64,000 nt of DNA from Patagioenas fasciata (GCF_037038585.1 NC_092556.1:514619-578618); one strand, 5' to 3'; counted from the first letter of the stretch, positions 129 through 23,162 are shown. The notes: generated from the sequence alone by a model not told the origin. Numbers and translations: made by a program.

Positions 129-220
129 TCAGCCCAGCACGTGGGCCACGGGCACCTTGGCGGGGCGGCCGCCGTGGGGCACGACCAGGGCGTCGGGGTC
201 GGCGTCGTCGGGGGGGAGGC
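129..220 (-). CDS. SPNS1: SPNS1 (spinster homolog 1, MFS transporter) exon 12 (terminal coding exon, includes stop)
   Basis: Minus-strand acceptor ggttgcccccag|GCC (AG = plus 221-222). Phase-1 exon encodes (G)LPPDDADPDALVVPHGGRPAKVPVAHVLG*, with stop TGA at plus 129-131. It aligns with the human SPNS1 C-terminus STDDRIVVPQRGRSTRVPVASVLI (human sequence recalled from memory). Confidence 0.8.
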
Positions 221-237
221 CTGGGGGCAACCAGGGG

Positions 238-1898
238 TGGTTGGTTAATGGGGGCAATGGGGGCAATGGGGACAATGGGGGTGATGGGGCAATGGGGGTA
301 ATGGGGGCAATGGGGGTAATGGGGCAATGGGGGTAATGGGGCAATGGGGGGAATGGGGGCAATGGGGGCAATGGGGGTAATGGGGCAATGGGGGCAATGG
401 GGGCAATGGGGCAATGGGGGTCAATGGGGCAATGGGGGCAATGGGGGTAATGGGGGCAATGGGGGCAATGGGGGCAATGGGGCAATGGGGGTCAATGGGG
501 GCAATGGGGGCAATGGGGTCAATGGGGGTAATGGGGCAATGGGGGTAATGGGGGCAATGGGGGCAATGGGGGCAATGGGGCAATGGGGGGCAATGGGGCA
601 ATGGGGGCAATGGGGGCAATGGGGCAATGGGGGCAATGGGGGCAATGGGGGCAATGGGGCAATGGGGGCAATGGGGCAATGGGGCAATGGGGTCAATGGG
701 GCAATGGGGCAATGGGGGCAATGGGGGTAATGGGGGCAATGGGGCAATGGGGCAATGGGGGCAATGGGGGCAATGGGGGCAATGGGGGCAATGGGGCAAT
801 GGGGACAATGGGGGCAGTGGGGGCAATGGGGGCAATGGGGGCAATGGGGGCAATGGGGCAATGGGGGCAATGGGGGCAATGGGGCAATGGGGGCAATGGG
901 GGCAATGGGGGTAATGGGGCAATGGGGGCAATGGGGCAATGGGGGCAATGGGGGCAATGGGGCAATGGGGGTGATGGGGACAATGGGGGCAATGGGGGCA
1001 ATGGGGTCAATGGGGCCATGGGGACAATGGGGGCAATGGGGTCAATGGGGCAATGGGGGCAATGGGGGCAATGGGGCAATGGGGCAATGGGGTCAATGGG
1101 GCAATGGGGACAATGGGGGCAATGGGGGTAATGGGGCAATGGGGGCAATGGGGGCAATGGGTATCAATGGGGGGCAATGGGGATCAATGGGGGGCAATGG
1201 GGGCAATGGGGGCAATGGGGACAATGGGGGTAATGCGGACAATGGGGACAATGGGGGTAATGGGGACAATGGGGACAATGGGGGTAATGGGGGTAATGGG
1301 GCAGTGGGGGCAATGGGGGCAATGGGGGGCAGTGGGGGCAATGGGGCAATGGGGGCAATGGGGACAATGGGGCAATGGGGGCAATGGGGCAATGGGGCAA
1401 TGGGGGCAATGGGGACAATGGGGCAATGGGGGCAATGGGGCAATGGGGGCAATGGGGGCAATGGGGACAATGGGGGCAATGGGGGTGATGGGGGCAATGG
1501 GGACAATGGGGGTAATGGGGACAATGGGGACAATGGGGGCAATGGGGCAATGGGGCAATGGGGACAATGGGGACAATGGGGGTAATGGGGGTAATGGGGC
1601 AATGGGGGTCAATGGGGCAATGGGGGCAATGAGGCAATGGGGTCAATGGGATCAATGGATCGATGGGGTCAATGGGGATCAATGGGGATCAATGGGGGTC
1701 AATGGGTCAATGGGGGTCAATGGGGATCAATGGGGGGCAATGGGGGCAATGGGGTCAATGGGGGCAATGGGGGCAATGGGGACAATGGGATCAATGGGTC
1801 AATGGGGTCAATGGGGATCAATGGGGATCAATGGGGGTCAATGGGTCATTGGGGTCAATGGGGTCAATGGGGTCAATGGGGTCAATGGGGGGGGGGTG
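238..1898. repeat. Tandem minisatellite (GGGGCAATGG / GGGGTCAATGG family, ~10-11 bp unit) filling SPNS1 intron 11
   Basis: Direct reading shows hundreds of near-identical units of gggggcaatgg, with variants gggacaatgg, ggggtaatgg and ggggtcaatgg. Confidence 0.9.
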
Positions 1899-1914
1899 GT
1901 CACGTGCCCCTCAC

Positions 1915-2083
1915 CTCGCGCCTCCCGCAGCGCTCGCGCGCGGTCCCGCGGGAGCGTGAGGGCGGATCCCAGGAAGGCCCCGCCCCCCAGGGCGGCCACG
2001 AAGGGGCAGAGCAGCAGCGCGCGGCCCAGCGCCTGCGCAGAGCGCAGCCACGAGGGGGCGGGGCCACGCAGCGCGTCACTCAG
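1915..2083 (-). CDS. SPNS1: SPNS1 exon 11
   Basis: Acceptor ccccgccccttcccccag|CTG (AG = plus 2084-2085). Encodes LSDALRGPAPSWLRSAQALGRALLLCPFVAALGGGAFLGSALTLPRDRARALREAR(G). Donor GCGAG|gtgagg. Matches human ...SEFRALQFSLMLCAFVGALGGAAFLGTAIFIEADRRRAQ. Confidence 0.85.
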
Positions 2084-2780
2084 CTGGGGGAAGGGGCGGG
2101 GTCACGGCGGCGCCGGCCAATCAGAGCGCCCCGGGGAGCCCCCCCTCCCACCCGGGTCCTAGCGCCGCCCGCTGGGGCCCTCCCGGTGCCCCCCAGTTCA
2201 TCCCGGTGCCCCCCAGCTCATCCCAGTGCCCCCCAGTCCCTCCCAGTGCTCCCCAGTTCATCCCGGTGCTCCCCAGTTCATCCCAGTGCCCCCCAGCTCA
2301 TCCCAGTGCCCCCCAGTCCCTCCCAGTGCTCCCCAGTTCATCCCGGTGCTCCCCAGTTCATCCCAGTGCCCCCCAGCTCATCCCAGTGCCCCCCAGTCCC
2401 TCCCAGTGCTCCCCAGTTCATCCCGGTGCTCCCCAGTTCATCCCAGTGCCCCCCAGTTCATCCCAGTGCCCCCCAGTCCCTCCCAGTGCTCCCCAGTTCA
2501 TCCCGGTGCCCCCCAGTTTGGTTCCCGGTCCCTCCCAGTGTCCCCCAGTCCCTCCCAGTGCCTCCCAGTCCCTCCCAGTTCAAACCAGTCCATACCATTC
2601 CCAGCAGGTAGGGGCTCCCCACGTCCCCCAGTCCCTCCCAGTCCCCCCAGTTCAAACCAGTCCCTCCCAGTCCATCCCAGTCCGCACCATTCCCAGCAGG
2701 TAGGGGCTCCCCGCGTCCCCCAGTCCCTCCCAATTCAAACCAGTCCCTCCCAGTTCAAACCAGTCCATCCCAGTCCGCAC

Positions 2781-2879
2781 CATTCCCAGCAGGTAGGGGC
2801 TCCCCGCGTCCCCCAGCAGATGCGACGCCCCCACCTGCAGGGCCGAGGCCGTCGAGCGGCGCCAGGGGGGGACCACGGT
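2781..2879 (-). CDS. SPNS1: SPNS1 exon 10
   Basis: Acceptor ccattgtccccag|ACC. Encodes [33 protein letters not shown]. Donor GGAATG|gtgcgg. Matches human [33 protein letters not shown]. Confidence 0.85.
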
Positions 2880-3420
2880 CTGGGGACAATGGGGACAATG
2901 GGGACAATGGGTCAGGGGGGTCCCCAGGGCCCCCCAATGGCACCCAGCGGGGACCACGGTCTGGGGACAATGGGGACAATGGGGACAATGGGTCAGGGGG
3001 GTCCCCAGGGCCCCCCAATGGCACCCAGGGGGGACCACGGTCTGGGGACAATGGGGACAATGGGGACAATGGATCAGGGGGGTCCCCAGGGCCCCCCAAT
3101 GGCACCCAGGGGGGACCACGCTCTGGGGACAATGGGGACAATGGGGACAATGGGTCAGGGGGGTCCCCAGGGCCCCCCAATGGCACCCAGGGGGGACCAC
3201 GGTCTGGGGACAATGGGGACAATGGGGACAATGGGTCAGGGGGGTCCCCAGGGCCCCCCAATGGCACCCAGGGGGGACCACGCTCTGGGGACAATGGGGA
3301 CAATGGGGACAATGGGTCAGGGGGGTCCCCAGGGCCCCCCAATGGCACCCAGGGGGGACCACGCTCTGGGGACAATGGGGACAATGGGGACAATGGGTCA
3401 GGGGGGTCCCCAGGGCCCCC
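2880..3420. repeat. ~60-bp tandem repeat x9 (gggaccacggtctggggacaatggggacaatggggacaatgggtcaggggggtccccagggccccccaatggcacccag) in SPNS1 intron 9
   Basis: Nine near-identical units are read directly. The satellite abuts the exon 10 acceptor. Confidence 0.85.
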
Positions 3421-4276
3421 AATGGCACCCAGGGGCCCACAAGTGTCCCCATTGCCCCCATTGTCCCCATTGCCCCCATTACCCCCATTGCCCCCCCTGT
3501 CCCCATTGCCCCCCATGTCCCCATCACCCCCATTGTCCCCATTATCCCCATTACCCCCACTACCCCCATTGTCCCCATTGTCCCCGTTACCTCCATCACC
3601 TCCATTGTCCCCAATGCCCCCATTGCCCCCATCGCCCCCATTGCCCCCATTGTCCCCATTGCCCCCATCACCCCCAATGTCCCCATCACCCCCAATGCCC
3701 CCCATTGCCCCCATTGCCCCCCAATGCCCCCAATGTCCCCATTGTCCCCAATGTCCCCATTGTCCCCATCACCCCCAATGTCCCCATCACCCCCAATGCC
3801 CCCCATTGTCCCCATTGCCCACCATGTCCCCACTGCCCCCATTGCCCCATTACCCCCAATATCTCCATTGCCCCCCATGTCCCCATTGTCCCCATTGTCC
3901 CCATTACCCCCATCGCCCCCATCACCCCCCATTGTCCCCATCGCCCCCATTGCCCCCCATGTCCCCATCACCTCCATTGTCCCCATTGTCCCCATTGTCC
4001 CCATCACCCCCAATGTCCCCATCGCCCCCATGTCCCCATTGTCCCCATTGCCCCCCATGTCCCCATCACCCCCATTGTCCCCATTGCCCCCCATGTCCCC
4101 ATCACCCCCATCACTCCCATTGCCCCCAATTCCCCATTGCCCCCCATGTCCCCACCGCCCCCATGTCCCCATTGCCCCCATCACCCCCATTGCCCCCATC
4201 ACCCCCATCGTCCCCATCACCCCCATCGCCCCCACTGCCCCCATGTCCCCATTGTCCCCTGTCCCCCTGTCCCCAC

Positions 4277-4342
4277 CAGCAGGATGTCGGCCACGATGGC
4301 CCAGTTCAGGGACAGCAGCGTCTCCCCCACGAAGATGAAAAC
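4277..4342 (-). CDS. SPNS1: SPNS1 exon 9
   Basis: Acceptor cctgtccccag|GTT. Encodes VFIFVGETLLSLNWAIVADILL. Donor CTGCTG|gtgggg. Matches human IFIFIGETLLSMNWAIVADILL. Confidence 0.85.
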
Positions 4343-5092
4343 CTGGGGACAGGGTCACGGGCTCAGGGGTCACGGGGTCACTGGGGTCACGGGGTCACTG
4401 GGGTCACTGTGTCCCCATAACCCCATAAACACTTCAAACCCCATAACCCCCCATACCCCCCCACCCCCATAACCCCAATACCCCCATGACCCCATAGACC
4501 CCATAACCCCCCATACCCCCATGACCCCCATAACCCCCTATGACCCCCATACCCCCATACCCCCAACACCCCCCATACCCCCATGACCCCCATACCCCCA
4601 ACACCCCCCATACCCCCATGACCCCCATACCCCCAACACCCCCCATACCCCCATGCCCCCCATAACCCCCTATGACCCCCATACCCCCAATACCCCCATA
4701 CCCCCATGCCCCCCATAACCCCCTATGACCCCCATACCCCCAACACCCCCCATACCCCCATGACCCCCATAACCCCCTATGACCCCCATACCCCCAACAC
4801 CCCAATACCCCCCATACCCCCATGACCCCATAACCCCCTATGACCCCCATACCCCCATACCCCCATGACCCCCATAACCCCTATGACCCCCATACCCCCA
4901 ACACCCCAATACCCCCCATACCCCCATGACCCCATAACCCCCTATGACCCCCATACCCCCAACACCCCCCATACCCCCATGACCCCCATGACCCCTATGA
5001 CCCCCATACCCCCAACACCCCCCATACCCCCATGACCCCCATGACCCCCATGACCCCCATGACCCCGCGCCCCCCACGTCCCCCCCACTCAC

Positions 5093-5282
5093 GTATGCGG
5101 CGGGGGGGCAGGGCCGGGCGCACAGCAGCGCCAGCAGCAGGCAGGGGGCGGCCCCCAGCACCCCTCCCCCGCACAGCAGGGGGTCCCCCCGCGGGGTCAG
5201 GGGGCGGAGCTTGCGCGACAGCCCCGCCCCCAACCCCACCCCCAGCACCCCCGACACGCACGTCAGCAGCCCGAACAGCAGG
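5093..5282 (-). CDS. SPNS1: SPNS1 exon 8
   Basis: Acceptor cctttgcccccag|C. Encodes (S)[63 protein letters not shown]. Donor GCATAC|gtgagt. Matches human [39 protein letters not shown]... Confidence 0.85.
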
Positions 5283-6897
5283 CTGGGGGCAAAGGGCAAA
5301 GGTCAGGGGGGGTCATGGGGGTCCAGGGGGTTATGGGGGGTTATGGGGTCACGGGGTTATGGGGCTTATAGGGGGTTATAGGGGTCATGGGGGTTATGGA
5401 GGTCATGGGAGTCAGGGGGGTCATGGGGGTCATAGGGGTCGGGGGGTCATGGGGGTCATAGGGGGTCATGGGGATGTGGGGTTATGGGGTCATAGGGGGT
5501 TATGGGGGTCATGGGGGTCATAGGAGTCAGTGGGTCATGGGGGTCATAAGGGGTCATGGGGGTCATAGGGGGTCATAAGGGTCAGGGGGGTTATGGGGGT
5601 CATGGGGGTCAGGGGGTCATGGGGGTCAGGGGGTCATGGGGGTCATAGGGGGTCATGGGGGTCAGGGGGATGTGGGGTTATGGGGGTTATGGGGGTTATG
5701 GGGGTTATGGGGTCATGGGGATGGGGGTTATAGGGTCATGGGGTCATAGGGGTCACGGGTCACCCCATTATCCCAATGTCCCCATTGTCCCCATTGCCCC
5801 CATTGCCCCCATTAACCCCATTGTTCCCATTACCCCATCACCCCCATCACCCCATTGTCCCTGCTGCCCCCATTGTCCCCATTGACCCCATTATCTCAAT
5901 GTCCCCATTGCCCCCATTGTCCCCATCACCCCCATTATCCCCATCACCCCACTGTCCCCTTGACCCCCATTGTCCCCATTGCCTCCATTGGCCCCATTGG
6001 CCCGATTGTCCCATTAACCCATCATCCCCATTACCCCATTGCCCCCATTATCCCATTGCCCCCATTGTCCCATTGTCCCCATTACCCCAATGTCCCCATT
6101 GCTCCCATTGTCCCATTGCCCCCGTCACCCCCATCCCCCCATCACCCCCATTGTCCCCATCACCCCCATTGTCCCATCACCCCCATTGTCTCATCACCCC
6201 CATCACCCCCATTGTCCCCATCCCCCCCATCCCCCCCATTGTCCCCATCACCCCCATTGTCCCATTGTCCCCATCACCCCCATCACCCCCATTCCCCCAT
6301 CACCCCCATTGTCCCATCACCCCCATCGCCCCCATTGTCCCATCCCCCCCATCACCCCCATCCCCCCCATTGTCCCATCCCCCCCATCACCCCCATTGTC
6401 CCCATCCCCCCCATTGTCCCATCACCCCCATCCCCCCCATTCCCCCATCACCCCCATTGTCCCATCACCCCCATTGTCCCATCACCCCCATTGTCCCCAT
6501 CCCCCCATCACCCCCATCACCCCCATTGTCCCCATCCCCCCCATCCCCCCCATTGTCCCCATCACCCCCATTGTCCCATTGTCCCCATCACCCCCATCAC
6601 CCCCATTCCCCCATTGTCCCATTGTCCCATCACCCCCATTGTCCCATCACCCCCATTGTCCCCATCACCCCCATCACCCCCATTGTCCCATCCCCCCCAT
6701 CACCCCCATTGTCCCATTGTCCCCATCACCCCCATTGTCCCCATCCCCCCCATTGTCCCATCACCCCCATTCCCCCATCACCCCCATTGTCCCCATCCCC
6801 CCCATTGTCCCATCACCCCCATTCCCCCATCACCCCCATTGTCCCCATCCCCCCCATTGTCCCCATCCCCCCCATTGTCCCCCCCCCCCCGTGTCAC

Positions 6898-7053
6898 CTC
6901 TCGTCGCCGTGGCAGCGCGGCCCCCGCTGGCAGGGGGGCAGGGCCCCGGTGGCCACGCGGCAGCGGCGCAGGAACGCGGGGGCCCAGAGGGCGAGGGCCC
7001 CGGTGACAAAGGACACGGCGGTGAAGCCCAGCGAGGACAGCACCAGCGTGCGG
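6898..7053 (-). CDS. SPNS1: SPNS1 exon 7
   Basis: Acceptor ccgtgtcccag|C. Encodes (N)RTLVLSSLGFTAVSFVTGALALWAPAFLRRCRVATGALPPCQRGPRCHGDE(S). Donor GACGAGAG|gtgaca. Matches human NPSFVLSSLGFTAVAFVTGSLALWAPAFLLRSRVVLGETPPC. Confidence 0.85.
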
Positions 7054-9412
7054 CTGGGACACGGGGACACCCCCGTCACACCCTGGGGACACCCTGGGGA
7101 CACCCTGGGGACACCCTGGGGACACCCCCGTCACACCCTGGGGACACCCCCGTCACACCCTGGGGACACCCCCGGTGACAAAGGACACGGCGGTGAAGCC
7201 CAGCGAGGACAGCACCAGCGTGCGGCTGGGGACATGGGGACAGCCCCGTCACACCCTAGGGACACCCTGGGGACACCCTGGGGACATGGGGACACCCCTG
7301 TCACACCCCTGGGGACACCCTGGGGACACCCTGGGGACACCCCTGTCACACCCTGGGGACACCCTGGGGACACCCTGGGGACACCCCTGTCACACCCTGG
7401 GGACACCCTGGGGACACCCTGGGGACACCCCCGTCACACCCTGGGGACACCCTGGGGACACCCCCGTCACACCCTGGGGACACCCTGGGGACACCCCTGT
7501 CACACCCCATGGGACATGGGGACACCCCTGGGGACATGGGGACACCCCCTGGGGACACCAATGAAACCCTGGGGACACCGCATGGGACACGGGGACACCC
7601 CTGGGGACACCCCTGTCACACCCCATGGCACCCCATGGGACATGGGGACACCCCTGGGGACATGGGGACACCCCCAGGGACACCCCATGGGACTCGGGGA
7701 CACCCCATAGGGACACAGGGACACCCCCGGGGATGCCCCATTGCACCCCATGGGACACGAGGACACCCCCAGGGACAACCCTGGGGACATGGGGACACCC
7801 CATAGGGACACAGGGACACCCCCAGGGACACCCCATGGCACCCATGGGACACGGGGACACCCCTGGTGACACCCCATTGCACCCCATGGGACATGGGGAC
7901 ACCCCTGGGGACACCGCATGGCACCCCATGGGACACAGGGACACCCCATGGGACTCGGGGACACCCCTGGGGACACGGGGACACCCCTGGGGACACCAAT
8001 GAAACCCTGGGGGTGCCAGGTCTACCCCATGGGGACACCAGGTCTACCCAGGGGGACCTGTCCCCATGTCCCCCCATGTCCCCATGTCCCCCATGTCCCC
8101 CATTGTCCCCATATCCCCCAATCCCCCCATAGCCCCCAATCCCCCCATATCCCCATAGCCCCCAATGTCCTCACATCCCCATTGTCCCCATATCCCCCAA
8201 TGTCCCCATGTCCCCCCATAGTCCCCCATTGTCCCCGTATCCCCCAATATCCCCAATCCCCCCACATCCCCCCAATGTCCCCACATCCCCCCATGTCCCC
8301 CATTGTCCCCAATGTCCCCACATCCCCCCATGTCCCCCATTGTCCCCAATGTCCCCACATCCCCCCATGTCCCCCATTGTCCCCAATGTCCCCACATCCC
8401 CCCATGTCCCCATAGCCCCCAATGTCCCCATATCCCCCCATATCCCCAATGTCCCCAATGTCCCCCCATGTCCCCCAATCCCCCCATATCCCCCAATGTC
8501 CCCATGTCCCCCATTGTCCCCATGTCCCCATTATCCCCATAGCCCCCAATGTCCCCACATCCCCCCCTGTCCCCCATTGTCCCCATATCGCCTCATGTCC
8601 CCCTATCCCCCAATGTCCCCAATGTCCCCCATTGTCCCCATATCCCCCATTGTCCCCAATCCCCCCACATCCCCCATTGTCCCCATATCCCCCATTGTCC
8701 CCACATCCCCCCATGCCCCCCAATGTCCCCACACCCCCCAATGTCCCCCAATGTCCCCATTGTCCCCAATGTCCCCACACCCCCCAATGTCCCCATTGTC
8801 CCCATTGTCCCCATTGCCCCCATTGTCCCCAATGTCCCCAATGTCCCCAATGTCCCCATTGCCCCCATTGCCCCCAATGTCCCCAATGTCCCCATTGTCC
8901 CCAATGTCCCCAATGTCCCCACACCCCCCAATGTCCCCACACCCCCCATTGTCCCCAATGTCCCCATTGTCCCCAATGTCCCCACACCCCCCAATCCCCC
9001 CACATCCCCCAATGTCCCTCAATCCCCTCAATGTCCCCCATGTCCCCCATTGTCCCCAATCCCCCCATGCCCCCCATTGTCCCCACATCCCCCCATGCCC
9101 CCCATTGCCCCCATTGCCCCATTGCCCCCATTGTCCCCAATGTCCCCACACCTCCCAATGTCCCCATTGTCCCCACTGTCCCCACTGTCCCCAATGTCCC
9201 CATTGTCCCCAATGTCCCCAATGTCCCCAATGTCCCCCATTGTCCCCAATGTCCCCACACCCCCCAATGTCCCCATTGTCCCCACTGTCCCCACTGTCCC
9301 CAATGTCCCCATTGTCCCCGATGTCCCCAATGTCCCCACACCCCCCATTGCCCCCATTGTCCCCATTGTCCCCAATGTCCCCCAATGTCCCCAGTGTCCC
9401 CCCTGTCCTCAC

Positions 9413-9555
9413 TTGGTGGCCAGGCGGCGCAGGTCGCTGGCCCAGTGCGGGTGGGGGAGGGGCGTGGCGGGGGGCAGCTCCAGGCCCCCCCGGGGGGGGT
9501 CGCTCACCAGCGTCACCAACAGCGCCAGGGCCACCAACCCCAGCACCGGGGTCAC
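9413..9555 (-). CDS. SPNS1: SPNS1 exon 6
   Basis: Acceptor cccgtgtccccag|GTG. Encodes VTPVLGLVALALLVTLVSDPPRGGLELPPATPLPHPHWASDLRALAT(N). Donor ACCAA|gtgagg. Matches human VTPGLGVVAVLLLFLVVREPPRGAVERHSDLPPLNPTSWWADLRALAR. Confidence 0.8.
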
Positions 9556-10654
9556 CTGGGGACACGGGGGGGTCACATGGGGTCACATGGGGGGGTCACA
9601 TGGGGACGGGGGGGGCACGTGGGGGGGGGGCACGTGGGGGGGGGTCACCTGGGGACACGGGGGGGTCACCTGGGGTCACATGGGGGGGTCACATGGGGAC
9701 GGGGGGGGCACGTGGGGGGGGGTCACCTGGGGACACGGGGGGGTCACCTGGGGGGGTCACATGGGGACGGGGGGGGCACGTGGGGGGGTCACCTGGGTCA
9801 TCTGGGGACATGGGGGGGGCACGTGGGGTCACATGGGGGGGTCACATGGGGACGGGGGGGGCACGTGGGGGGGGGGTCACCTGGGGTCACCTGGGGACAC
9901 GGGGGGGGTCACATGGGGATGGGGGGGGCACGTGGGGGGGTCACCTGGGGTCACCTGGGGACATGGGGGGGGGCACGTGGGGTCACATGGGGGGGTCACC
10001 TGGGGCCACCTGGGGTCACCTGGGGACACGGGGGGGCACGTGGGGACGGGGGGGGCACGTGGGGGGGTCACCTGGGGTCATCTGGGGACATGGGGGGGGG
10101 CACGTGGGGTCACATGGGGGGGGTCACCTGGGGACATGGGGGGGTCACCTGGGGGCACCTGGGGATGGGGGGGGGGGGCACATGGGGGGGTCACCTGGGG
10201 TCACCTGGGGACATGGGGGGGCACGTGGGGGCACATGGGGACGGGGGGGGCACGTGGGGGGGGCACGTGGGGACTTGGCGGGGTCACCTGGGGTCACATG
10301 GGGACCCTGTTGAGGACACTGGGGGGGTTTGGGGACCCTGCTGGGGACACTGGGGACCCTTTTGGGGACATTGGGGGGGTTTGGGGACCCTGTTGGGGAC
10401 ACTGGGGACCCTTTTGGGGACATTGGGGGGGTTTGGGGACCCTGTTGGGGACACTGGGGGGTTTGGGGTCACTGTTGGGGACACTGATGGGGACACTGGG
10501 GACCCTGTTGGGGACACTGGGGGGGTTTGGGGACCCTGTTGGGGACCCTGTTGGGGTCACTGATGGGGACACTGGGGACACTGGGGGGGTTTGGGGACAC
10601 TGATGGGGACACTGGGGACATTGGGGCCACTGGGGCCGTGGGTCCCGGGCTCAC

Positions 10655-10721
10655 CCTGAGGGCCCAGCGCCAGTCGGAGGCCACGTCCTTCACCTTGGCC
10701 CCGATGATGTAACCGAGCCCG
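10655..10721 (-). CDS. SPNS1: SPNS1 exon 5
   Basis: Acceptor catgtccccag|C. Encodes (S)GLGYIIGAKVKDVASDWRWALR. Donor CTCAGG|gtgagc. Matches human [23 protein letters not shown]. Confidence 0.85.
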
Positions 10722-13134
10722 CTGGGGACATGGGGACAGCATGGGGACATCAGCGGGGACATGGGGACATCAGCGGGGACATGGGGACATCAGCGGGGAC
10801 ATGGGGACATTGGGGACATGGGGACATTGGGGGCAATGGGGACATGGGGACATTGGGGGCAATGGGGACATCAGCGGGGACATGGGGACATTGGGGACAT
10901 TGGGGACATTGGGGACATGGGGACAATGGGGACATTGGGGACACCATGGGGACATCAGTGGGGACACGGGGACCCCACAATCCCCACCCCCGTGTCCCCA
11001 TGTCCCCATCACCCCCATGGCCCCCAACGTCCCCATAGCCCCCATTGTCCCCAATGTCCCCACTGATGTCCCCATCACCCCCCCATGTCCCCACAACCCC
11101 CAATGTTCCCCCATGTCCCCACATCCCCCCACAACCCCCAATGTCCCTCTGTCCCTCAATGTCCCCATGTCCCCCCACATCCCCAATGTCCCCATTGCCC
11201 CCAATGTCCCATCACCGCCATTGTCCCCAATGTCCCCAATGTCCCCATCACCCCCATCACCCCCATTGTCCCCACTGCCCCCATTGTCCCCATTGCCCCC
11301 AATGCCCCCATTGTGCCCAATACCCCCCACCGCCCCCATTGACCCCCATATTCCCCCAATGTCCCCATTGTTCCCGTCACCCCCACCACCCCCAATGTCC
11401 CCAATGCCCCCAATGTCCCCCCTCCCCCATCACCCCCATTGTCCCCATCACCCCATCCCCCCATTGCCCCCACTGCCCCCATCCCCCCCCACCCCCATCC
11501 CCCCCATCCCTCTCACCGCCCCATCCCCCCATTGCCCCCCATCCCCCCCAATGTCCCCACGTCCCCCATCCCCCCCCCATCCCCCCATCCCCCCCACTGC
11601 CCCCATTGCCCCCCCCACCCCCATCCCCCCCCCCACCCCCAATGCCCCCATTGTCCCCATCCCCCCCATCACCCCCATCCCCCCATTGTCCCCATCCCCC
11701 CCACCACCCCCATCCCCCCATTGCCCCCATTGCCCCCATTGTCCCCCATTACCCCCCCACCCCCATCCCCCCATCCCCCCCACTGCCCCCATCCCCCCCC
11801 CACCCCCATCCCCCCCATTGCCCCCATTGCCCCCCATCCCCCCCACTGCCCCCATCCCTCCCCCACCCCCATCCCCCCATTGCCCCCATTGCCCCCCATC
11901 CCCCCCACTGCCCCCATCCCCCCCACCACCCCCATCCCCCCATTGCCCCCATTGTCCCCCATTACCCCCCCACCCCCATCCCCCCCAATGTCCCCATTGT
12001 CCCCATTGCCCCATCCCCCCCCACCCCCATCCCCCCAATGTCCCCAATGCCCCCATCCCCCCATTGCCCCCAATGTTCCCATTGCCCCCCATTACCCCCC
12101 CACCCCCATCCCCCCCAATGTCCCCATGTCCCCCATCCCCCCCCACCCCCATCCCCCCATTACCCCCAATGTCCCCATTGCCCCCTCACCCCCAATGTCC
12201 TCATCCCCCCATTGTCCCCATCCCCCCAATGTCCCCATTGCCCCCAATGTCCCCATCCCCCTCCCCACCCCCATCTCCCCCATTGTTCCCAATGTCCCCA
12301 TCCCCCCCATCCCCCTCCCCCTCCCCCCCATCCCCCCCATTGCACCCCCCACCCCCATCCCCCCATCCCCCCCATTGCCCCCATCCCCCTCAATGCCCCC
12401 ATTGTCCCCATCCCCCCCCCCACCCCCATCCCCCCCAATGCCCCCAATGTCCCCATGCCCCCATCACTCCCATCCCCCCATCCCCCCCATTGCCCCCCCC
12501 ACCCCCATCCCCCCAATGCCCCCAATGTCCCCATCCCCCCCCATCCCCCTCCCCCTCCCCCCCATCCCCCCCATTGCACCCCCCACCCCCATCCCCCCAT
12601 TGTCCCCATTGCCCCCCATTACCCCCCCACCCCCATCCTGCCCAATGTCCCCATCCCCCCCCACCCCCATCCCCCCATTACCCCCAACGTCCCCATTGCC
12701 CCCTCACCCCCATTGCCCCCATCCCCCCCCAACCCCCCCAATGTCCCCCTCCCCCCCCATCACTCCCATCCCCCCATTGCCCCCATTGCCCCCCATTGCC
12801 CCCCACCCCTATCCCCCCCATTGCTCCCAATGTCCCCATCCCCCCCCCCCTCCCCCCCATCCCCCCATTGCCCCCCATCCCCCCCAATGTCCCCACGTCC
12901 CCCATCCCCCCACCACCCCCATCCCCCCCCCCACCCCCATTGCCCCCATTGTCCCCATCCCCCCACCCCCCCCATCCCCCCACCCCCCCCACCGCCCCAT
13001 CCCCCCACCGCCCCCATCCCCCCCATCCCCCCATCCCCCCCATTACCCCCAATGTCCCCCCCCATCCCCACCCCCCCACTGTCCCCATCCCCCCCACTGT
13101 CCCCCATCCCCCCCCCCAATGTCCCCGCTGTCAC

Positions 13135-13286
13135 CTCCCCAGCGGGACCCCCACGTAGAAGGCGGCGAGCGCGGGGGTGCGGGCGGGGCCGGCGCTGACG
13201 TCAGCGATGAGGGCGGGGGCCAGCGTGCTGAACCCCCCCTCCCCCACCCCCACCAGCGCCCGGCCCAGCAGCAGCAGCCAGAACCC
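13135..13286 (-). CDS. SPNS1: SPNS1 exon 4
   Basis: Acceptor ccgccctttgcgcag|GGG. Encodes GFWLLLLGRALVGVGEGGFSTLAPALIADVSAGPARTPALAAFYVGVPLG(S). Donor GGGGAG|gtgaca. Matches human [51 protein letters not shown]. Confidence 0.85.
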
Positions 13287-14745
13287 CTGCGCAAAGGGCG
13301 GGGTCAGCGGGGGCACGGGGGCACGGGGTCACAGGGGGTCATGGGGTCACAGGGGTCATGGGGTCATAGGGGGCGTGGGGGTCACAGGGGGTCATGGGGT
13401 CACAGGGGCTCACAGGGGGTCACAGGGGGTCAGGGGGTCACAGGGGGTCATGGGGTCATAGGGGGGCGTGGGGTCACAGGGGGCATGGGGTCATATGGGG
13501 TCACGGGGGTCATGGGGTCACAGGGGGTCACAGGGGGTCATGGGGTCACAGGGGGTCAGGGGGTCACAGGGGCTCACAGGGGGTGTGGGGTCACAGGGGG
13601 TCACAGGGGTCATGGGGTCACAGGGGGGCGTGGGGTCACAGGGGGTCATGAGGTCACAGGGGGTCACAGGGGGTCATGGGGGGCAGGGGTCACCGGGGTC
13701 ACGGGGTCAGGGGCTCACAGGGGGTCACAGGGGGTCACGGGGGGCAGGGGTCACACGGGTCATGGGGGCAGGGGGTCACAGGGGGTCATGGGGTCACAGG
13801 GGGTCAGGGGGTCACAGGGGGTCATGGGGTCACAGGGGGTCAGGGGGTCACAGGGGGTCACGGGGGGCAGGGGTCACAGGGGACATGGGGTCAAGGGGTC
13901 ACAGGGGGGCACGGGGTCACAGGGGGGCATGGGGTCATATGGGGTCACGGGGGTCATGGGGTCAGGGGGTCAAAGGGGGTCAGGGGATCACAGGGGTCAT
14001 GGGGTCATGGGGTCACAGGGGGGCGTGGGGTCACAGGGGGTCATGAGGTCACAGGGGGTCATGGGGTCACAGGGGGTCATGGGGTCACAGGGGGTCACAG
14101 GGGTCACGGTCAGGGGGTCACAGGGGGTCAGGGGGTCACAGGGGGGTGTGGGGTCACAGGGGGTCACAGGGGGTCATGGGGTCATAGGGGGGCACGGGGT
14201 CACATAGGGTCACAGGGGGTCATGGGGTCACAGGGTGTCAGGGGGTCACAGGGGGTCACCGGGGTCACGGGGTCAGGGGGTCACACCCACCCCACAGCCC
14301 CCCATGTCCTACCCCATTGTGCCCCACACCCACCCCATACCCACCCCATGTCCCCCCATGTCCCGCCCCACTGTGCCCCACACCCACCCCACACCCACCC
14401 CACAGCCCCCCATGTTCCGCCCCATTGTGCCCCACACCCGCCCCACACCCACCCCACAGCCCCCCATGTCCCGCCCCACTGTGCCCCACACCCACCCCAC
14501 ACCCACCCCACAGCCCCCCATGTCCCGCCCCACTGTGCCCCACATCTGCCCCACACCCACCCCATAGCCCCCCATGTCCCGCCCCATTGTGCCCCACACC
14601 CACCCCACAGCCCCCCATGTCCCCCCATGTCCCGCCCCACTGTGCCCCACATCTGCCCCACACCCACCCCATAGCCCCCCATGTCCCCCCATGTCCCGCC
14701 CCACCGTGCCCCACATCTGCCCCACACCCGCCCCACACCCACCTG

Positions 14746-14882
14746 GGGGGGCACGAAGCTGCTGGCCAGGGTGGCCCCGCCCCATAGGGCGCTGGCCCCA
14801 CAGAGCAGGAGCTTCCGGTTCCAGCGATCGCCCAGGAACCCGAAGAGGGGGGCGAGCAGGAGGTAACTGAGGATGAACACTG
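14746..14882 (-). CDS. SPNS1: SPNS1 exon 3
   Basis: Acceptor ccacggattctcag|TG, which lies inside the last unit of the adjacent 46-bp satellite. Encodes (V)FILSYLLLAPLFGFLGDRWNRKLLLCGASALWGGATLASSFVPPQ. Donor CCCCAG|gtgggt. Matches human [44 protein letters not shown]. Confidence 0.8.
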
Positions 14883-17300
14883 AGAATCCGTGGGTCAGAC
14901 CCACACGTGTGGGGCACGAACCCACCCAGCAGCCATGGGTCAGACCCACACGTGTGGGGCAGGAACCGACACTGAGAATCCATGGGTCAGACCCACACGT
15001 GTGGGGCACAAACCCACCCAGCAGCCATGGGTCAGACCCACACGTGTGGGGCAGGAACCCACCCAGCAGCCATGGGTCAGACCCACACGTGTGGGGCAGG
15101 AACCCACCCAGCAGCCATGGGTCAGACCCACACGTGTGGGGCAGGAACCCAAACCCAGCATCCATGGGTCAGACCCACACGTGTGGGGCAGGAACCCACC
15201 CAGCAGCCATGGGTCAGACCCACACGTGTGGGGCAGGAACCGACAGTGAGCAGCTATGGGTCAGACCCACACGTGTGGGGCAGGAACCCAAACCCAGCAT
15301 CTATGGGTCAGACCCACACGTGTGGGGCAGGAACCAACACTGAGAATCCATGGGTCAGACCCACACGTGTGGGGCAGGAACCCAAACCCAGCATCCATGG
15401 GTCAGACCCACACGTGTGGGGCAGGAACCCAAACCCAGCAGCCATGGGTCAGACCCACACGTGTGGGGCAGGAACCGACACTGAGAATCCATGGGTCAGA
15501 CCCACACGTGTGGGGCAGGAACCCAAACCCAGCATCCATGGGTCAGACCCACACGTGTGGGGCAGGAACCCACCCAGCATCTATGGGTCAGACCCACACA
15601 TGTGGGGCAGGAACCAACACTGAGAATCCATGGGTCAGACCCACACGTGTGGGGCAGGAACCCAAACCCAGCAGCCATGGGTCAGACCCACACGTGTGGG
15701 GCAGGAACCAACCCAGCAGCCATGGGTCAGACCCACACGTGTGGGGCAGGAACCCACCCAGCAGCCATGGGTCAGACCCACACGTGTGGGGCAGGAACCG
15801 ACAGTGAGCAGCTATGGGTCAGACCCACACGTGTGGGGCAGGAACCCAAACCCAGCATCCATGGGTCAGACCCACACGTGTGGGGCAGGAACCCAAACCC
15901 AGCATCCATGGGTCAGACCCACACGTGTGGGGCAGGAACCCAAACCCAGCAGCCATGGGTCAGACCCACACGTGTGGGGCAGGAACCGACACTGAGAATC
16001 CATGGGTCAGACCCACACGTGTGGGGCAGGAACCCAAACCCAGCATCCATGGGTCAGACCCACACGTGTGGGGCAGGAACCAACACTGAGAATCCATGGG
16101 TCAGACCCACACGTGTGGGGCACGAACCCACCCAGCAGCCATGGGTCAGACCCACACGTGTGGGGCAGGAACCCAAACCCAGCATCCATGGGTCAGACCC
16201 ACACGTGTGGGGCAGGAACCAAGACTGAGAATCCATGGGTCAGACCCACACGTGTGGGGCAGGAACCAACACTGAGAATCCATGGGTCAGACCCACACGT
16301 GTGGGGCAGGAACCGACACTGAGCAGCTATGGGTCAGACCCACACGTGTGGGGCAGCAACCCAAACCCAGCATCTATGGGTCAGACCCACACGTGTGGGG
16401 CAGGAACCCACCCAGCAGCCATGGGTCAGACCCACACGTGTGGGGCAGGAACCGACAGTGAGCAGCTATGGGTCAGACCCACACGTGTGGGGCAGGAACC
16501 CACCCAGCAGCCATGGGTCAGACCCACACGTGTGGGGCAGGAACCGACAGTGAGTAGCTATGGGTCAGACCCACACGTGTGGGGCAGGAACCCAAACCCA
16601 GCAGCCATGGGTCAGACCCACACGTGTGGGGCAGGAACCGACAGTGAGCAGCTATGGGTCAGACCCACACGTGTGGGGCAGGAACCCACCCAGCAGCCAT
16701 GGGTCAGACCCACACGTGTGGGGCAGGAACCCACCCAGCATCTATGGGTCAGACCCACACGTGTGGGGCAGGAACCCACCCAGCATCTATGGGTCAGACC
16801 CACACGTGTGGGGCAGGAACCGACAGTGAGCAGCTATGGGTCAGACCCACACGTGTGGGGCAGGAACCGACCCAGCAGCCATGGGTCAGACCCACACGTG
16901 TGGGGCAGGAACCCACCCAGCAGCCATGGGTCAGACCCACACATGTGGGGCAGGAACCAACACTGAGAATCCATGGGTCAGACCCACACGTGTGGGGCAG
17001 CAACCCAAACCCAGCATCTATGGGTCAGACCCACACATGTGGGGCAGGAACCAACACTGAGAATCCATGGGTCAGACCCACACGTGTGGGGCAGGAACCA
17101 ACCCAGCATCCATGGGTCAGACCCACACGTGTGGGGCAGGAACCAACACTGAGAGTGCGGGGGTCAGACCCACACGTGTGGGGCAGGAACCCACCCAGCA
17201 TCTATGGGTCAGACCCACACGTGTGGGGCAGGAACCCACCCAGCATCTATGGGTCAGACCCACACGTGTGGGGCAGGAACCAACACTGAGCAGCTACGGG
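14883..17300. repeat. 46-bp palindromic E-box satellite, ~52 copies (cccacacgtgtggggcaggaacccacccagcagccatgggtcagac), in SPNS1 intron 2
   Basis: Every unit contains the perfect 16-bp palindrome CCCCACACGTGTGGGG with a central CACGTG E-box. The array is followed at 17300-17620 by a related ~60-bp repeat carrying the same palindrome. Confidence 0.9.
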
Positions 17301-17619
17301 TCAGACCCACACGTGTGGGGCACTATGGGGCAGAGCTGTCTGCAGGAGCTCTATGGGGGTGATGTGTGGGTCAGCCCCACACGTGTGGGGCGCTATGGGG
17401 CAGAGCTGTCTGCAGGAGCTCTATGGGGGTGATGTGTGGGTCAGCCCCACACGTGTGGGGCGCTATGGGGCAGACCTGTCTGCAGGAGCTCTATGGGGGG
17501 GTGATGTGTGGGTCAGCCCCACACGTGTGGGGCGCTATGGGGCAGAGCTGTCTGCAGGAGCTCTATGGGGGGGTGATGTGTGGGTCAGCCCCACACGTGT
17601 GGGGCGCTATGGGGCAGAC

Positions 17620-17685
17620 CTGTCTGCAGGAGCCCGGATTTCCCGTCATCGATGCCGAAATAATCCTCAATATCCGGGAGAACAC
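17620..17685 (-). CDS. SPNS1: SPNS1 exon 2
   Basis: Acceptor gtctgtgccccccag|GT. Encodes (G)VLPDIEDYFGIDDGKSGLLQT(V). Donor CAGACAG|gtctgc (weak). Matches human GVLPDIEQFFNIGDSSSGLIQT. Confidence 0.8.
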
Positions 17686-18463
17686 CTGGGGGGCACAGAC
17701 CCATAAGTGACCCATAAGTGACCCATAAGTGACCCATAAGTGACCCATAAGTGACCCACAGCGACCCATAGAGACCCATAACCGACCAAAAATTGACCCA
17801 CAAGTGACCCATGAATCTCCCATAGTGACCCCCTGACCCATAAGTGACCCACAGCAACCCCCTAACTGACCCATAGTGACCCATAAGAGACCCATAGTGA
17901 CCCATAAGTAACCCAAAGTGACCCATAACTGACCCATAAGTGACCCATAAGTGACCCAAAGTGACCCATAGCAACCCCATAAGTGACACATAGCGACCCA
18001 TAAGTGACCCATAAGTGACCCAAAGTGACCCATAGCAACCCCATAACTGACCCATAGCAACCCCATAAGTGACCCATAGAGACCCATAAGTGACCCCATA
18101 GCAACCCCATAAGTGACCCATAGTGACCCATAAGTGACCCAAAGTGACCCCATAAGCGACCCATAAGTGACCCATAAGTGACCCATAACTGGCCCTTAGT
18201 GACCCATAAGTGACCTATAGAGACCCCCGTAACTGACCCATAGAGACCCATAAGTGACCCCGTTTTGCCCCCCCTGCCCCACATCTCCCCCCACATCTCC
18301 CCACACCCCGCCCCCCATCTGCCCCATATCTGCCCCACATCCCACCCCACATCTCCCCCATTCTCTCCCCATATCCCACCCCATTTACTCCCCACATCTC
18401 CCCACACCCCGCCCCACACCCCGACCCCCACATCTCCCCACATCCTGCCCCACATCTCCCCAC

Positions 18464-18659
18464 CAGCCAGTGTGAACCGGTCCATGTAGTTGAGCAGGTT
18501 GACGTAGCACAGCACGGCCAGCGTGCGCCGGGGCGCCGTGGGGCCGCTATGGGGCGCTGTGGGGCCGCTATGGGGCGCCGTGGGGCTGGGGGGGGCGCTG
18601 TGGGGCAGCCCCTCCCCCCCCGTGTCGTCCGCGCGGTGAAGGAGCGGCCCCGACGCCAT
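18464..18659 (-). CDS. SPNS1: SPNS1 exon 1 (start codon)
   Basis: ATG is the reverse complement of plus 18657-18659, in the context ccccATGG. Encodes MASGPLLHRADDTGGEGLPHSAPPSPTAPHSGPTAPHSGPTAPRRTLAVLCYVNLLNYMDRFTLA(G). Donor CTGGCTG|gtgggg. Matches human ...RSALIVAVLCYINLLNYMDRFTVAG. There is no in-frame stop upstream, so the start codon is inferred from homology and context. Confidence 0.7.
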
Positions 18660-19430
18660 GGGGCAGCCTGGGGGGAGACCCACAGGGACCACGGGGTGAC
18701 CCATAGGGACCCATAGGGACCCACAGAGTGACCCATAGGGACCATGGGGTGACCCATAGGGACCCATAGGGACCCATAGAGACCATGGAGTGACCCATAG
18801 GGACCATGGGGTGACCCACAGGGACCCATAGAGTGACCCATAGGGACCATGGGGTGACCCACAGGGACCCATAGAGTGACCCATAGGGACCATGGGGTGA
18901 CCCATAGGGACCCATAGGGACCCATAGGGACCATGGGGTGACCCATAGGGATACATAGGGACCCATAGAGTGACCCATAGGGACCATGGGGTGACCCATA
19001 GGGACCCATAGAGACCATGGAGTGACCCATAGGGACCCATAGAGTGACCCATAGGGACCATGGGGTGACCCATAGGGACCCATAAAGACCCACAGAGTTA
19101 CCCATAGGGACCCATAGGGACCCATAGAGTGACCCATAGGGACCATGGGGTGACCCACAGGGACACATAGGGACCCATAGGGACCCACAGAGTTACCCAT
19201 AGGGACCCATAGGGACCCATAGAGACCATAGAGACCCATAGGGACCATAGAGACCCACAGAGACCCATAGGGACCCATAGAGACCCATAGAGTGACCCAT
19301 AGAGACCGATAGAGACCCATAGAGACCCATAGAGTGACCCATAGAGACCGATAGAGACCCATAGAGACCCATAGAGTGACCCATAGAGACCCATAGAGAC
19401 CATAGAGACTCTAGAGACCCAAATTCCCCC
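18660..19430. repeat. Tandem satellite (gggacccatagggaccatggggtgacccatag family) between the SPNS1 start codon and the promoter
   Basis: Direct reading. It probably lies within the SPNS1 5'UTR or an intron, because promoter-like unique sequence only begins at ~19430. Confidence 0.8.
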
Positions 19431-19558
19431 CCCCTTCCCCCGCCCCTCCCCCCACCCCTCTCCCCCCCTCCTCTCCCCCATTTTTGCCCCAAACCCGCGG
19501 TTTTCACCCCAATTTTCCCCCTTTCCCGCCCTCACCGGCCGCCCCGGCCCAGCCGCGG

Positions 19559-19606
19559 CTCACGTGACCTCGCGCTCACGTGACCACCCCCCCTCCACAC
19601 GTGACC
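19559..19606. promoter_or_regulatory. Cluster of three CACGTG E-boxes (two are TCACGTGAC CLEAR-like motifs)
   Basis: gctCACGTGAcctcgcgctCACGTGAccaccccccctccaCACGTGAccgc. The lysosomal CLEAR consensus GTCACGTGAC is matched 9/10 by the first two. Confidence 0.55.
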
Positions 19607-19869
19607 GCCGCTTCCGAGAAGAAGCCGGAAGTGGCGTCCACTCCCCCCCCCCCCCCCCCGCCGCTTTACGAGAGAAATGGTGGCGATTTGGGGCCAAATT
19701 CGGGCCGTTCTGCCCCAAAATGCGACGGGGGGAGGGGAAACAATGGGGGAAATTGGCGGGAAATTCACCAGAGCTGCCTAAAAGAGCCCAAATGGGTCCC
19801 CCCCGAACTCCTGGGTCCGTCCCTCCCCCCGCCCCCCACCGCCGCCCCCGTCCATGGGGCGGGAGGAGG

Positions 19870-20200
19870 CGGGAGAACCAATGGGGGTGGAGGGGGCGGG
19901 GCGAGCGGCGCCTATGAGCCAATGGGAAGCGAGCGGGGGGGCGGGGGAAGCACCGGGGTCAACGGGGAGCGCGGCTGAGCCAATAGGAAGCGAGCGGGCG
20001 GGGCGAACCGCTCCGTGAACCAATGGGAAGCGAGTGGGCGGGGCGAGCTGGCTGTTTCACCGGGGAGCGAGTGGGCGGGGCTCGCGGCGCCGCTGAACCA
20101 ATGGGAACCGAGCGTGCGGGACGCGCGGCGCCCTGAGCCAATAGGGAGGGAGTAGGGGGGGGAGCGGCGGCGCTGAACCAATGGGGATGAAGCGGGGGGG
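19870..20200. repeat. Tandem ~45-60 bp promoter repeat, seven units of CCAAT box + GC box (gagCCAATgggaagcgagcGGGCGGGGCg)
   Basis: CCAATGGG or CCAATAGG occurs at ~19878, 19917, 19978, 20019, 20099, 20138 and 20178, each followed by gaagcgagcgggcggggcg-like sequence. The array lies immediately upstream of the INO80E ATG. Confidence 0.7.
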
Positions 20201-20238
20201 GCTCCCGGCACTTCCGTGAAGGAGCCGGAAGTGCGGCC

Positions 20239-22480: not shown

Positions 22481-23162
22481 GTCCCGAAACCCCAGAAAAT
22501 CAGCCCAAAATGCACCCGCCCCGCACTCCTGGGTCCCCTGGGGCACTCCTGGGTCCCTTGGGGCACTCCTGGGTCCCCCCCGAACTCCTGGGTCCCTCCC
22601 CGAACTCCTGGGTCCCTCCCGAACTCCTGGGTCCCTCCCCGAACTCCTGGGTCCCTCCCGAACTCCTGGGTCCCTCAGAACTCCTGGGTCCCTTGGGGCA
22701 CTCCTGGGTCCCTCCCCGCACTCCTGGGTCCCTTGGGGCACTCCTGGGTCCCTCCCAAACTCCTGGGTCCCTCCCCGAACTCCTGGGTCCCTCCCCAAAC
22801 TCCTGGGTCCCTCCCGAACTCCTGGGTCCCTCCCCGAACTCCTGGGTCCCCCCCCGAACTCCTGGGTCCCCCCCGAACTCCTGGGTCCCTTGGGGCACTC
22901 CTGGGTCCCTCCCGAACTCCTGGGTCCCTCCCCGAACTCCTGGGTCCCTCCTGAACTCCTGGGTCCCTCCCGCACTCCTGGGTCCCTCCCGAACTCCTGG
23001 GTCCCCCCCGAACTCCTGGGTCCCCTGGGGCACTCCTGGGTCCCTCCCGAACTCCTGTGTCCCCCCCGAACTCCTGGGTCCCTCCCCGAACTCCTGGGTC
23101 CCTCCCGAACTCCTGGGTCCCTCCCGGACGCCTGGGTCCCTCACACCCCCTTTCCCCCCCAG

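Follow-up and report, generated by a model that had tools for sequence, protein, structure and literature searches.

The SPNS1 gene of the band-tailed pigeon and its repeat-filled introns

The first 19 kb of a 64-kb stretch of the genome of the band-tailed pigeon Patagioenas fasciata (GCF_037038585.1, NC_092556.1:514619-578618; hereafter the window, to which all coordinates refer) have a GC content of 60-71% and are covered nearly wall to wall by tandem repeat arrays detected with Tandem Repeats Finder (TRF). Minus-strand open reading frames (ORFs) are located in the short gaps between these arrays and assemble into the gene encoding SPNS1, spinster homolog 1. We rebuilt the gene model independently by locating conserved peptide cores and then enumerating the frame-compatible GT/AG sites nearby. 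The resulting model comprises 12 exons on the minus strand between positions 18659 and 129, with GT-AG boundaries in all 11 introns (22/22 splice sites canonical) and a coding sequence (CDS) of 1533 nt, which encodes 510 amino acids followed by TGA. The original prediction for this locus, which had described 12 exons of 66-196 nt with canonical splice sites and a 510-aa product, is reproduced by these numbers. The model protein is identical to RefSeq XP_071657412.1 (isoform X1, Patagioenas fasciata) at 510/510 positions; SPNS1 of the band-tailed pigeon is already annotated in RefSeq, and the gene is not new.

Exon 1 (18659-18464, 196 nt) starts with the ATG at 18659-18657 and is followed by exon 2 (17685-17620, 66 nt), exon 3 (14879-14743, 137 nt), exon 4 (13286-13135, 152 nt), exon 5 (10721-10655, 67 nt), exon 6 (9555-9413, 143 nt), exon 7 (7053-6898, 156 nt), exon 8 (5282-5093, 190 nt), exon 9 (4342-4277, 66 nt), exon 10 (2879-2781, 99 nt encoding 33 aa), exon 11 (2083-1915, 169 nt) and exon 12 (220-129, 92 nt), all positions being those of the rebuilt model. 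Exon 12 ends with the stop codon TGA at 131-129, and an AATAAA signal is found at 104-99, 25 nt beyond it. A reading with 13 exons, in which exon 1 is split at an internal 10/21-bp repeat at 18530-18606, was rejected: no stop interrupts the frame between the ATG and the donor at 18463, leaving no intron inside exon 1, and RefSeq X1 has the same 510 aa. The exon does contain an in-frame 21-bp tandem repeat of 2.7 copies (18530-18586, minus strand); it translates to APHSGPT repeats within the N-terminal tail, which is poorly conserved. In another bird, a full-length mRNA contig of SPNS1 lacks six residues of this repeat, and thus tandem expansion has reached coding sequence where the constraint is weak.

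The identity of the protein was assessed by a search against 5.8 billion proteins. The top match was isoform X2 of Patagioenas fasciata SPNS1, and among the best 120 matches listed all named entries were spinster homolog 1 or an equivalent, a few being nameless, while SPNS2 and SPNS3 appeared far down the list. The best match in the PDB was human SPNS1 (9BOI; 575 bits, E 1e-171), which aligned over residues 32-493 including the C-terminal tail, compared to 426 bits for the SPNS2 chains. With human SPNS1 and the vertebrate orthologs the alignment is full-length and includes the C-terminal VVPxxGRxxKVPVAxVL tail, which is absent in SPNS2. The Pfam domain MFS_1 was detected at residues 51-411 (E 1.9e-37, 129.5 bits versus a cut-off of 33.4). 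The gene had been proposed to be a complete SPNS1 ortholog, and both the database matches and the comparison with the spinster paralogs support this assignment. No second copy of SPNS1 turned up in the protein searches run.

Compared to mammalian SPNS1 the pigeon protein is only about 57% identical, and the GC content at third codon positions (GC3) of its CDS is 0.93. Based on 410 codons aligned with the ortholog of the Nicobar pigeon (Caloenas), we obtained a dN of 0.072, a dS of 0.276 and a dN/dS ratio of 0.26. Because of this ratio the gene appears to be functional and under purifying selection, though fast-evolving, and its product is predicted to be a lysosomal lysophospholipid transporter of the major facilitator superfamily, an activity whose computational support consists of this same signature of purifying selection. 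For a conserved lysosomal transporter an amino acid identity of 88% between the window and Caloenas indicates fast evolution. This, together with the high GC3, fits the GC-biased accelerated evolution reported for genes on dot chromosomes. All 12 exons are colinear in Columba, Caloenas, Grus, Struthio and Alligator, and the mRNA contig of another bird mentioned above, assembled from RNA-seq reads and 67% identical, is colinear across all 11 junctions.

From intron 1 to intron 11 the intron lengths amount to 778, 2740, 1456, 2413, 1099, 2359, 1615, 750, 1397, 697 and 1694 nt, or 17.0 kb in total. TRF coverage ranges between 0.86 and 1.00 in every intron (11/11), in line with the earlier description of the introns as nearly all tandem repeat. 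It is 0.00-0.06 in eight exons and reaches 0.21-0.51 in exons 1, 2 and 10 since arrays extend into them; array ends lie at the exon edges or within about 35 nt of them. It had also been noted that some splice sites are located inside repeat units. This holds for the acceptor of exon 3 (ggattctcag), which lies within the terminal unit of the intron 2 satellite, although the period of this satellite is 47/92 bp and not 46 bp. Likewise, the initial 8 nt of exon 6 (GTGACCCC) and the preceding CCCCAG belong to the repeat unit of intron 5.

All introns are described here along the sense strand, i.e. the minus strand of the window. Intron 1 (17686-18463) contains a G-rich array of the GGAGATGTGGGG type and, after it, (GGGTCACTTAT)x52, the 11-mer unit of which carries a branch-point-like CTTAT. 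Intron 2 (14880-17619) contains a 72-bp x4.7 array copying the edge of exon 2 together with its donor, and then the 47/92-bp satellite in 52 or 26 copies. A G-rich 54-bp array followed by a C-rich (TGTGACCCCCTGACCCCC)x55 array with CTGAC/TGAC motifs makes up intron 3 (13287-14742), and intron 4 (10722-13134) consists of about 2 kb of G-rich 9-mers (GGGGGGGAT/ATGGGGGCA) preceding a C-rich 38-bp unit with CTGAT. Intron 5 (9556-10654) is C-rich throughout and holds at least 12 near-copies of the exon 6 acceptor, CCCCAG followed by GTGACCCC. Intron 6 (7054-9412) is composed of (GGGGACATT)x148 and subsequent GGGTGTCCCCA-type arrays, intron 7 (5283-6897) of (GGGGGCAAT)x127 and a C-rich CCCCATAACCCC array, and intron 8 (4343-5092) of a GGGGTTATGGGGGTCAT 53-bp higher-order array and (GTGACCCC)n. 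In intron 9 (2880-4276) an (GGGGGCAAT)x90 array precedes seven 81-bp units (2866-3435), which are 98% alike, and in intron 10 (2084-2780) a 92-bp x2.8 array (2555-2816) precedes a ACTGGGAGGGACTGGG-type array. Intron 11 (221-1914) is filled by (CCCCCATTG)x186 and contains only two AG dinucleotides in 1694 nt.

According to the 11-mers that introns have in common, the proposal of a different repeat family in nearly every intron stands for introns 1, 2, 5, 8 and 10, which carry private families, but not for introns 4, 6, 7 and 9, which have a GGGG(N)CAAT/GACATT 9-mer family in common (17-52% of 11-mers shared), nor for intron 11, in which 60-70% of the 11-mers are the reverse complement of this same family. 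Furthermore, reverse-complementing the G-rich array of intron 8 gives the C-rich 3' array of intron 7.

The splice signals of the gene are preserved next to these arrays. All 11 donors have GT, ten of them GTG, and 4-7 of 9 positions match the U1 consensus. A branch-point-like motif is present 13-38 nt upstream of 11/11 acceptors (yTnAy in eight introns, TGAC in three), and the tract before each acceptor is 60-80% pyrimidine, mostly C. In most introns the motif lies within the repeat unit itself: introns 2 and 3 have CTGAC, introns 5 and 8 GTGAC, intron 1 CACTTAT and intron 4 CTGAT, for example. A rule that demands a branch-point-like motif, 8-38 nt of AG-free sequence with at least 60% pyrimidine and a closing AG recovered 10/11 true acceptors. 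The same rule identified no further module in introns 1, 4, 10 and 11 and between 1 and 16 decoys in the remaining introns.

Regarding the sense strand, 8/11 introns start G-rich and turn C-rich towards their ends, and G-quadruplex (G4) motifs are found 199 times in the sense and 118 times in the antisense orientation of the introns. Each intron keeps its polarity across the five birds that were compared; introns 5 and 11, for instance, are C-rich on the sense strand in every bird. Since the short alligator introns are already G-rich and then C-rich, this composition is most parsimoniously explained by local amplification: pieces of a short GC-rich intron would, once multiplied, reproduce it without selection.

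The comparison included the SPNS1 loci of the window, Caloenas, Columba, Grus (crane), Struthio (ostrich) and Alligator. In alligator the introns measure 80-596 nt, 2.4 kb in total, within a coding span of 3.9 kb, and none is filled by tandem repeats (coverage 0.00 in ten introns and 0.08 in intron 7). Repeat-filled introns number about 8/11 in ostrich (100-2502 nt), 8-9/11 in crane (87-2665 nt) and 10-11/11 in the three pigeons (185-4376 nt), and total intron length is about seven-fold higher in the window than in alligator. The repeat pattern is far beyond chance, and the alligator ortholog with the same exons has almost no intronic tandem repeats.

Orthologous introns resemble each other more than other introns do: the fraction of shared 11-mers between the window and Columba is 0.37 on the diagonal versus 0.04 off it, with 10/11 rows maximal on the diagonal, and the corresponding values for Caloenas are 0.25 and 0.03. 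The ACTGGGAGGGACTGGG-type array of intron 10 is common to crane (11-mer sharing 0.34) and, faintly, to ostrich (0.09). Across birds it is the same introns that have expanded, in some cases with a common motif; the seeds of the arrays are thus old, while their lengths are labile. Lengths of orthologous arrays and introns vary 2-9 fold among the three pigeon genera, and individual lineages retain unexpanded introns, namely intron 5 in Caloenas (185 nt) and introns 1, 2 and 6 in crane (87-146 nt). In crane, intron 2 is 87 nt long and can be aligned with the last satellite unit of pigeon intron 2, CTGAC and acceptor region included; the 47/92-bp satellite therefore probably represents the amplified 3' half of a once-short ancestral intron of about 90 nt. 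In Caloenas nicobarica, intron 10 harbours a 4-kb (GGCGGCTCTAGGACCCGGTG)x193 array (locus positions ~15650-19690) without counterpart in the other pigeons, its length being 4376 nt compared to 697 nt in the window.

Several arrays include copies of the exon edges together with their splice sites. In each of the seven 81-bp units at the 3' end of intron 9, a CTGAC motif and a pyrimidine tract are followed by CAG and the opening 12-14 nt of exon 10, or about 20 nt of the exon when a one-base gap is tolerated. Thereby six decoy acceptors of exon 10 arise, with exon starts at 2960, 3041, 3122, 3203, 3284 and 3365 (minus strand). All six are in frame and stop-free and add 27 aa each. We do not take this as a sign of selection, as a single stop-free GC-rich unit of 27 codons repeated six times gives the same result automatically. 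On the other side of the exon, two extra copies of its last ~33 nt and the donor are contained in the 92-bp x2.8 array at the 5' end of intron 10, giving decoy donors with first intron bases at 2687 and 2595 (minus strand), one of which is exact and in frame, at +93.

A further set of four donor copies is located in intron 2 (17335-17547, minus strand; first intron bases 17547, 17475, 17405 and 17335). They span the last 14 nt of exon 2 and its donor, reading TCCTGCAGACAG on the exon side of the junction and GTCTGCCCCA on the intron side. Only the copy at 17475 keeps GT, the other three having changed GT to CT. The exact copy lies at +144, and splicing there would bring in a stop codon. Copies of exon edges were also found at exons 3 and 4 in Caloenas, at exons 3 and 4 in Struthio and at exon 7 in Columba, and none was detected in SPNS1 of crane or alligator. 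As different edges are affected in each lineage, these copies are recent and lineage-specific.

The original prediction suggested that the splice sites alone define the introns. This has to be rejected, since near-perfect splice-site copies with branch-point motif, pyrimidine tract and exon edge occur inside introns 2, 5, 9 and 10. Given that the same sets of splice signals are present at true and decoy positions, we infer that the exon body and a nearby partner site must contribute to the choice, i.e. exon definition. Of the 12 exons, exon 10 alone has copied splice sites on either side. The only annotated alternative isoform, RefSeq X2 (XP_071657413.1), corresponds to the model minus exactly the 33 residues of this exon, and the choice of exon 10 may be leaky, as this RefSeq annotation hints. 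The segment removed in X2 (2781-2879, minus strand) includes SHLLGDAGSPYL, which is nearly invariant in human SPNS1 and SPNS2.

Repeat-filled introns of this kind have recently been described in other birds. Hron et al. 2026 (Genome Biol Evol, PMC12954441; preprint September 2025) reported "sequence stuttering" on the dot chromosomes of chicken, where local, imperfect tandem expansions fill the introns up to the exon boundaries, with PHF8 as an example, and occasionally take in a copy of an exon edge and its splice site; such expansions are absent in other vertebrates. Length variation of introns between individuals is part of the definition, the median repeat coverage of chicken dot-chromosome introns is 7-93%, and G4-associated replication stress or meiotic gene conversion was suggested as the cause. 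A preprint on non-B DNA in the telomere-to-telomere (T2T) genome of zebra finch (10.1101/2025.10.17.683159) found that tandem repeats account for more than 70% of dot-chromosome intron sequence, with units in multiples of 10-11 bp, an excess of G4 on the coding strand of introns, and the pattern extending across eight birds. The repeat-filled introns of SPNS1 are a further instance of this recently published phenomenon and not a new phenomenon.

The likeness to the chicken case extends to the GC richness of pigeon SPNS1, the repeat coverage of its introns, the bounding of arrays by exons, units of tens to hundreds of bp, the copying of exon edges with their splice sites (six acceptors and two donors at exon 10, four donors at exon 2, many near-copies at exon 6) and the absence of arrays in a non-avian outgroup, the alligator. 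As in the dot-chromosome introns of zebra finch, the SPNS1 introns are mostly tandem repeat, have units of about 9-11 bp and multiples thereof and show a coding-strand excess of G4. On the other hand, the present case concerns another species and a gene outside the main text of the chicken report; SPNS1 and pigeon loci are absent from the main text of both papers. In contrast to the chicken report, several SPNS1 arrays are common to pigeon genera and one reaches crane and ostrich, so some arrays are old. Moreover, no repeats crossing into exons were described in chicken, whereas exon 1 of SPNS1 holds an in-frame coding repeat. The zebra finch preprint provides genome-wide statistics without per-gene anatomy, splice-site decoys or a comparison of orthologous introns across species.

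Taken together, the locus at 129-18659 (minus strand) very probably represents the functional SPNS1 gene of the band-tailed pigeon, the introns of which have been inflated by local tandem amplification, the sequence stuttering of avian dot microchromosomes. According to this explanation, the ancestral state would have been a compact gene of about 4 kb with short GC-rich introns as in alligator, and in birds each intron would have been inflated by tandem amplification of its own pieces. The amplified pieces would fall into three classes: G-run-rich sequence just past the donor, the branch point with the C-rich tract before the acceptor and, occasionally, an exon edge with its splice site. Purifying selection on the coding sequence would stop the arrays at the exons. 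As mechanisms of amplification, slippage during replication, unequal exchange or gene conversion seem likeliest, in DNA that is prone to G4 and recombines at a high rate. Splicing presumably proceeds by exon definition, with the true sites keeping GT/AG, a branch-point-like motif 13-38 nt upstream and a C-rich tract, and with most arrays lacking a complete decoy 3' splice module; at exons 2, 6 and 10, where near-perfect decoys exist, the choice would depend on the unique exon body and the nearby partner site.

Instead of being a tolerated by-product, the arrays might be functional elements under selection, for example G-run splicing enhancers, G-quadruplex or R-loop regulators, or recombination hotspots. 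The constant polarity of each intron in five birds, the sense-strand excess of G4 motifs, the four introns of up to 2.4 kb without a complete decoy 3' splice module and the disabling of 3/4 exon 2 donor copies by GT to CT changes would agree with such a role, and possible functions in splicing or recombination have been raised for zebra finch (10.1101/2025.10.17.683159). However, the arrays of three pigeon genera differ 2-9 fold in unit sequence, period and length, the gene is intact with unexpanded introns in Caloenas and crane and with no arrays at all in alligator, and the polarity, which alligator introns already have, is reproducible by amplification without selection. Since TRF covers 90% of the whole 64-kb window, including its intergenic DNA and neighbouring genes, the sea of repeats is also not special to SPNS1. 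We therefore regard selection for array function as unlikely. A more specific version is likewise improbable: the arrays would be amplified splicing-signal modules (G-runs by the donors, branch point and pyrimidine tract by the acceptors) whose orientation, and in intron 10 also the motif, has been kept since the split of palaeognaths and neognaths, with selection keeping them splice-silent, e.g. by GT to CT changes, and with the exon 10 modules as a recent natural competition between splice sites whose cost is visible as the exon-10-skipped isoform.

Misassembly of long reads rich in GC and prone to G4, with introns that are short in reality and arrays that are spurious or wrongly sized, was considered because dot-chromosome sequence is hard to sequence, HiFi coverage falls at non-B DNA (10.1101/2025.10.17.683159) and the array lengths were taken from a single assembly. 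It is very improbable and was rejected, as five independent bird assemblies agree on array-bearing introns with related motifs; in addition, the arrays are organised in structured higher-order periods and join the exons cleanly, and such arrays were confirmed in chicken with raw nanopore reads (Hron et al., PMC12954441). It is also very improbable that the locus is a decaying, non-functional SPNS1 copy whose splice signals are being overrun, even though heavy gene loss on dot chromosomes, the fast evolution of the protein (88% aa identity between two pigeon genera), the decoy splice sites flanking exon 10 and the annotated skip, which would drop a conserved segment of 33 aa, could be read in this way. 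The 510-aa ORF and all 22 splice sites are intact, dN/dS is 0.26, the 12 exons are colinear from alligator to pigeon, another bird has a full-length spliced mRNA contig, and the protein searches run turned up no second copy; a pseudogene was thus rejected.

Several points nevertheless weigh against inflation of the pigeon introns by stuttering from local sequence. The motifs of the bird arrays could not be traced to alligator introns, 9-mer sharing being 0.011 on the diagonal and 0.011 in the background. One 9-mer family occurs in five introns and in both orientations, which is not strictly a local origin; it may have recurred by convergence on a G4-type motif or by exchange between introns. 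The predicted junctions draw on homology, the RefSeq model and the colinear RNA-seq contig of another bird, and a search for pigeon transcript fragments with the C-terminal 205 aa returned none above 88% identity, the best RNA-seq (Logan) fragment reaching 71% and none originating from Patagioenas or Columba. Furthermore, the window is a single haplotype, while stuttering is defined by length variation between individuals, for which the 2-9 fold variation among pigeon genera serves as a proxy. Finally, we infer the location of the window on a dot chromosome; the RefSeq SPNS1 gene is located on a 2.1-Mb contig and its orthologs on chromosome records of 775 kb (Caloenas) and 490 kb (Columba).

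Provided that our explanation holds, SPNS1 adds, from beyond chicken and zebra finch, a clean worked example of sequence stuttering, which entered the literature in 2025-2026. At the resolution of a single gene, a compact archosaur gene of about 4 kb would have grown to about 18.5 kb purely by tandem amplification of its own intron sequence with the 12 exons intact. Added to this are the old, orthologous character of some arrays and the youth of the exon-edge copies, the branch-point candidates in every intron and the decoy-rich exon 10. With its six decoy acceptors, two decoy donors and annotated skip, the exon 10 locus would be a convenient natural substrate for studying how the spliceosome chooses among identical sites, its value depending on transcript data.

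Comparable introns are known from other systems. The Y-linked fertility genes of Drosophila have gigantic, megabase-sized introns of AT-rich or simple satellite and are heterochromatic and testis-specific; Hron et al. cite Fingerhut & Yamashita 2022 on such genes. Pigeon SPNS1 resembles them in being, presumably, a working gene whose satellite-array introns are transcribed through and spliced out, and differs in that its introns are short (0.7-2.7 kb), GC-rich, euchromatic and apparently derived from neighbouring intron or exon sequence. G-rich minisatellites and immunoglobulin switch regions are intronic repeats with non-template G-runs, prone to form G4 and R-loops and unstable in length. 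The arrays of SPNS1 likewise start G-rich on the sense strand in 8/11 introns, the other three being C-rich or neutral. The likeness is one of sequence; programmed recombination, targeting by activation-induced cytidine deaminase (AID) and R-loops are traits of switch regions.

The window as a whole is gene-dense, with a GC content of 46-71% in 2-kb bins, above 58% in most of them, and an Rfam scan over its full length detected no RNA family. It ends on the downstream side of SPNS1, where LAT follows the gene in ostrich and alligator; in crane a Rad60-SLD gene precedes SPNS1. In the window the upstream neighbour is an INO80E-like gene, with a MAZ-like gene after it. INO80E and MAZ are genes of human 16p11.2, like SPNS1.

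The INO80E-like gene (20239-~23230, plus strand) has a first exon encoding MNGAGEVDGGGYKRRYRALKRRLKLLLY and gave a weak Pfam INO80E match below the cut-off (E 4e-4). A later exon (23143-23230, plus strand) encodes SYLLDRLLLYENVDDE, and the introns of the gene also consist of arrays, e.g. (TTTTGGGGGTGAAATTGGGGA)x67 at 20933-22350. Tandem modules about 40-60 bp apart precede the ATG of the gene at 20239 (19878-20201, plus strand); there are seven, each with a CCAAT box and behind it a GC-box-like GGGCGGGG. They lie in a CpG-rich gap of about 1.6 kb (CpG observed/expected 0.79) between the SPNS1 ATG on the minus strand and the neighbour's ATG on the plus strand, and look like a promoter module that was duplicated in tandem within a bidirectional promoter.

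Pfam zf-C2H2 matches mark a C2H2 zinc-finger gene at 38407-38856 and 35375-35477 (minus strand), the intron in between consisting of (CCAAC)x312 and (GACCAGTAT)x157. It resembles MAZ and is the MAZ-like neighbour mentioned above. No coding segments were recognised in the region 43750-57216, which is AT-richer (46-53% GC) and has a strong strand skew (GC skew up to +0.94). The stretch consists of units of the TTTTGGGG/ATTTGGGG type, among them (GGGGGGAATTT)x290 at 47725-50959 and higher-order repeats of 400-440 bp.

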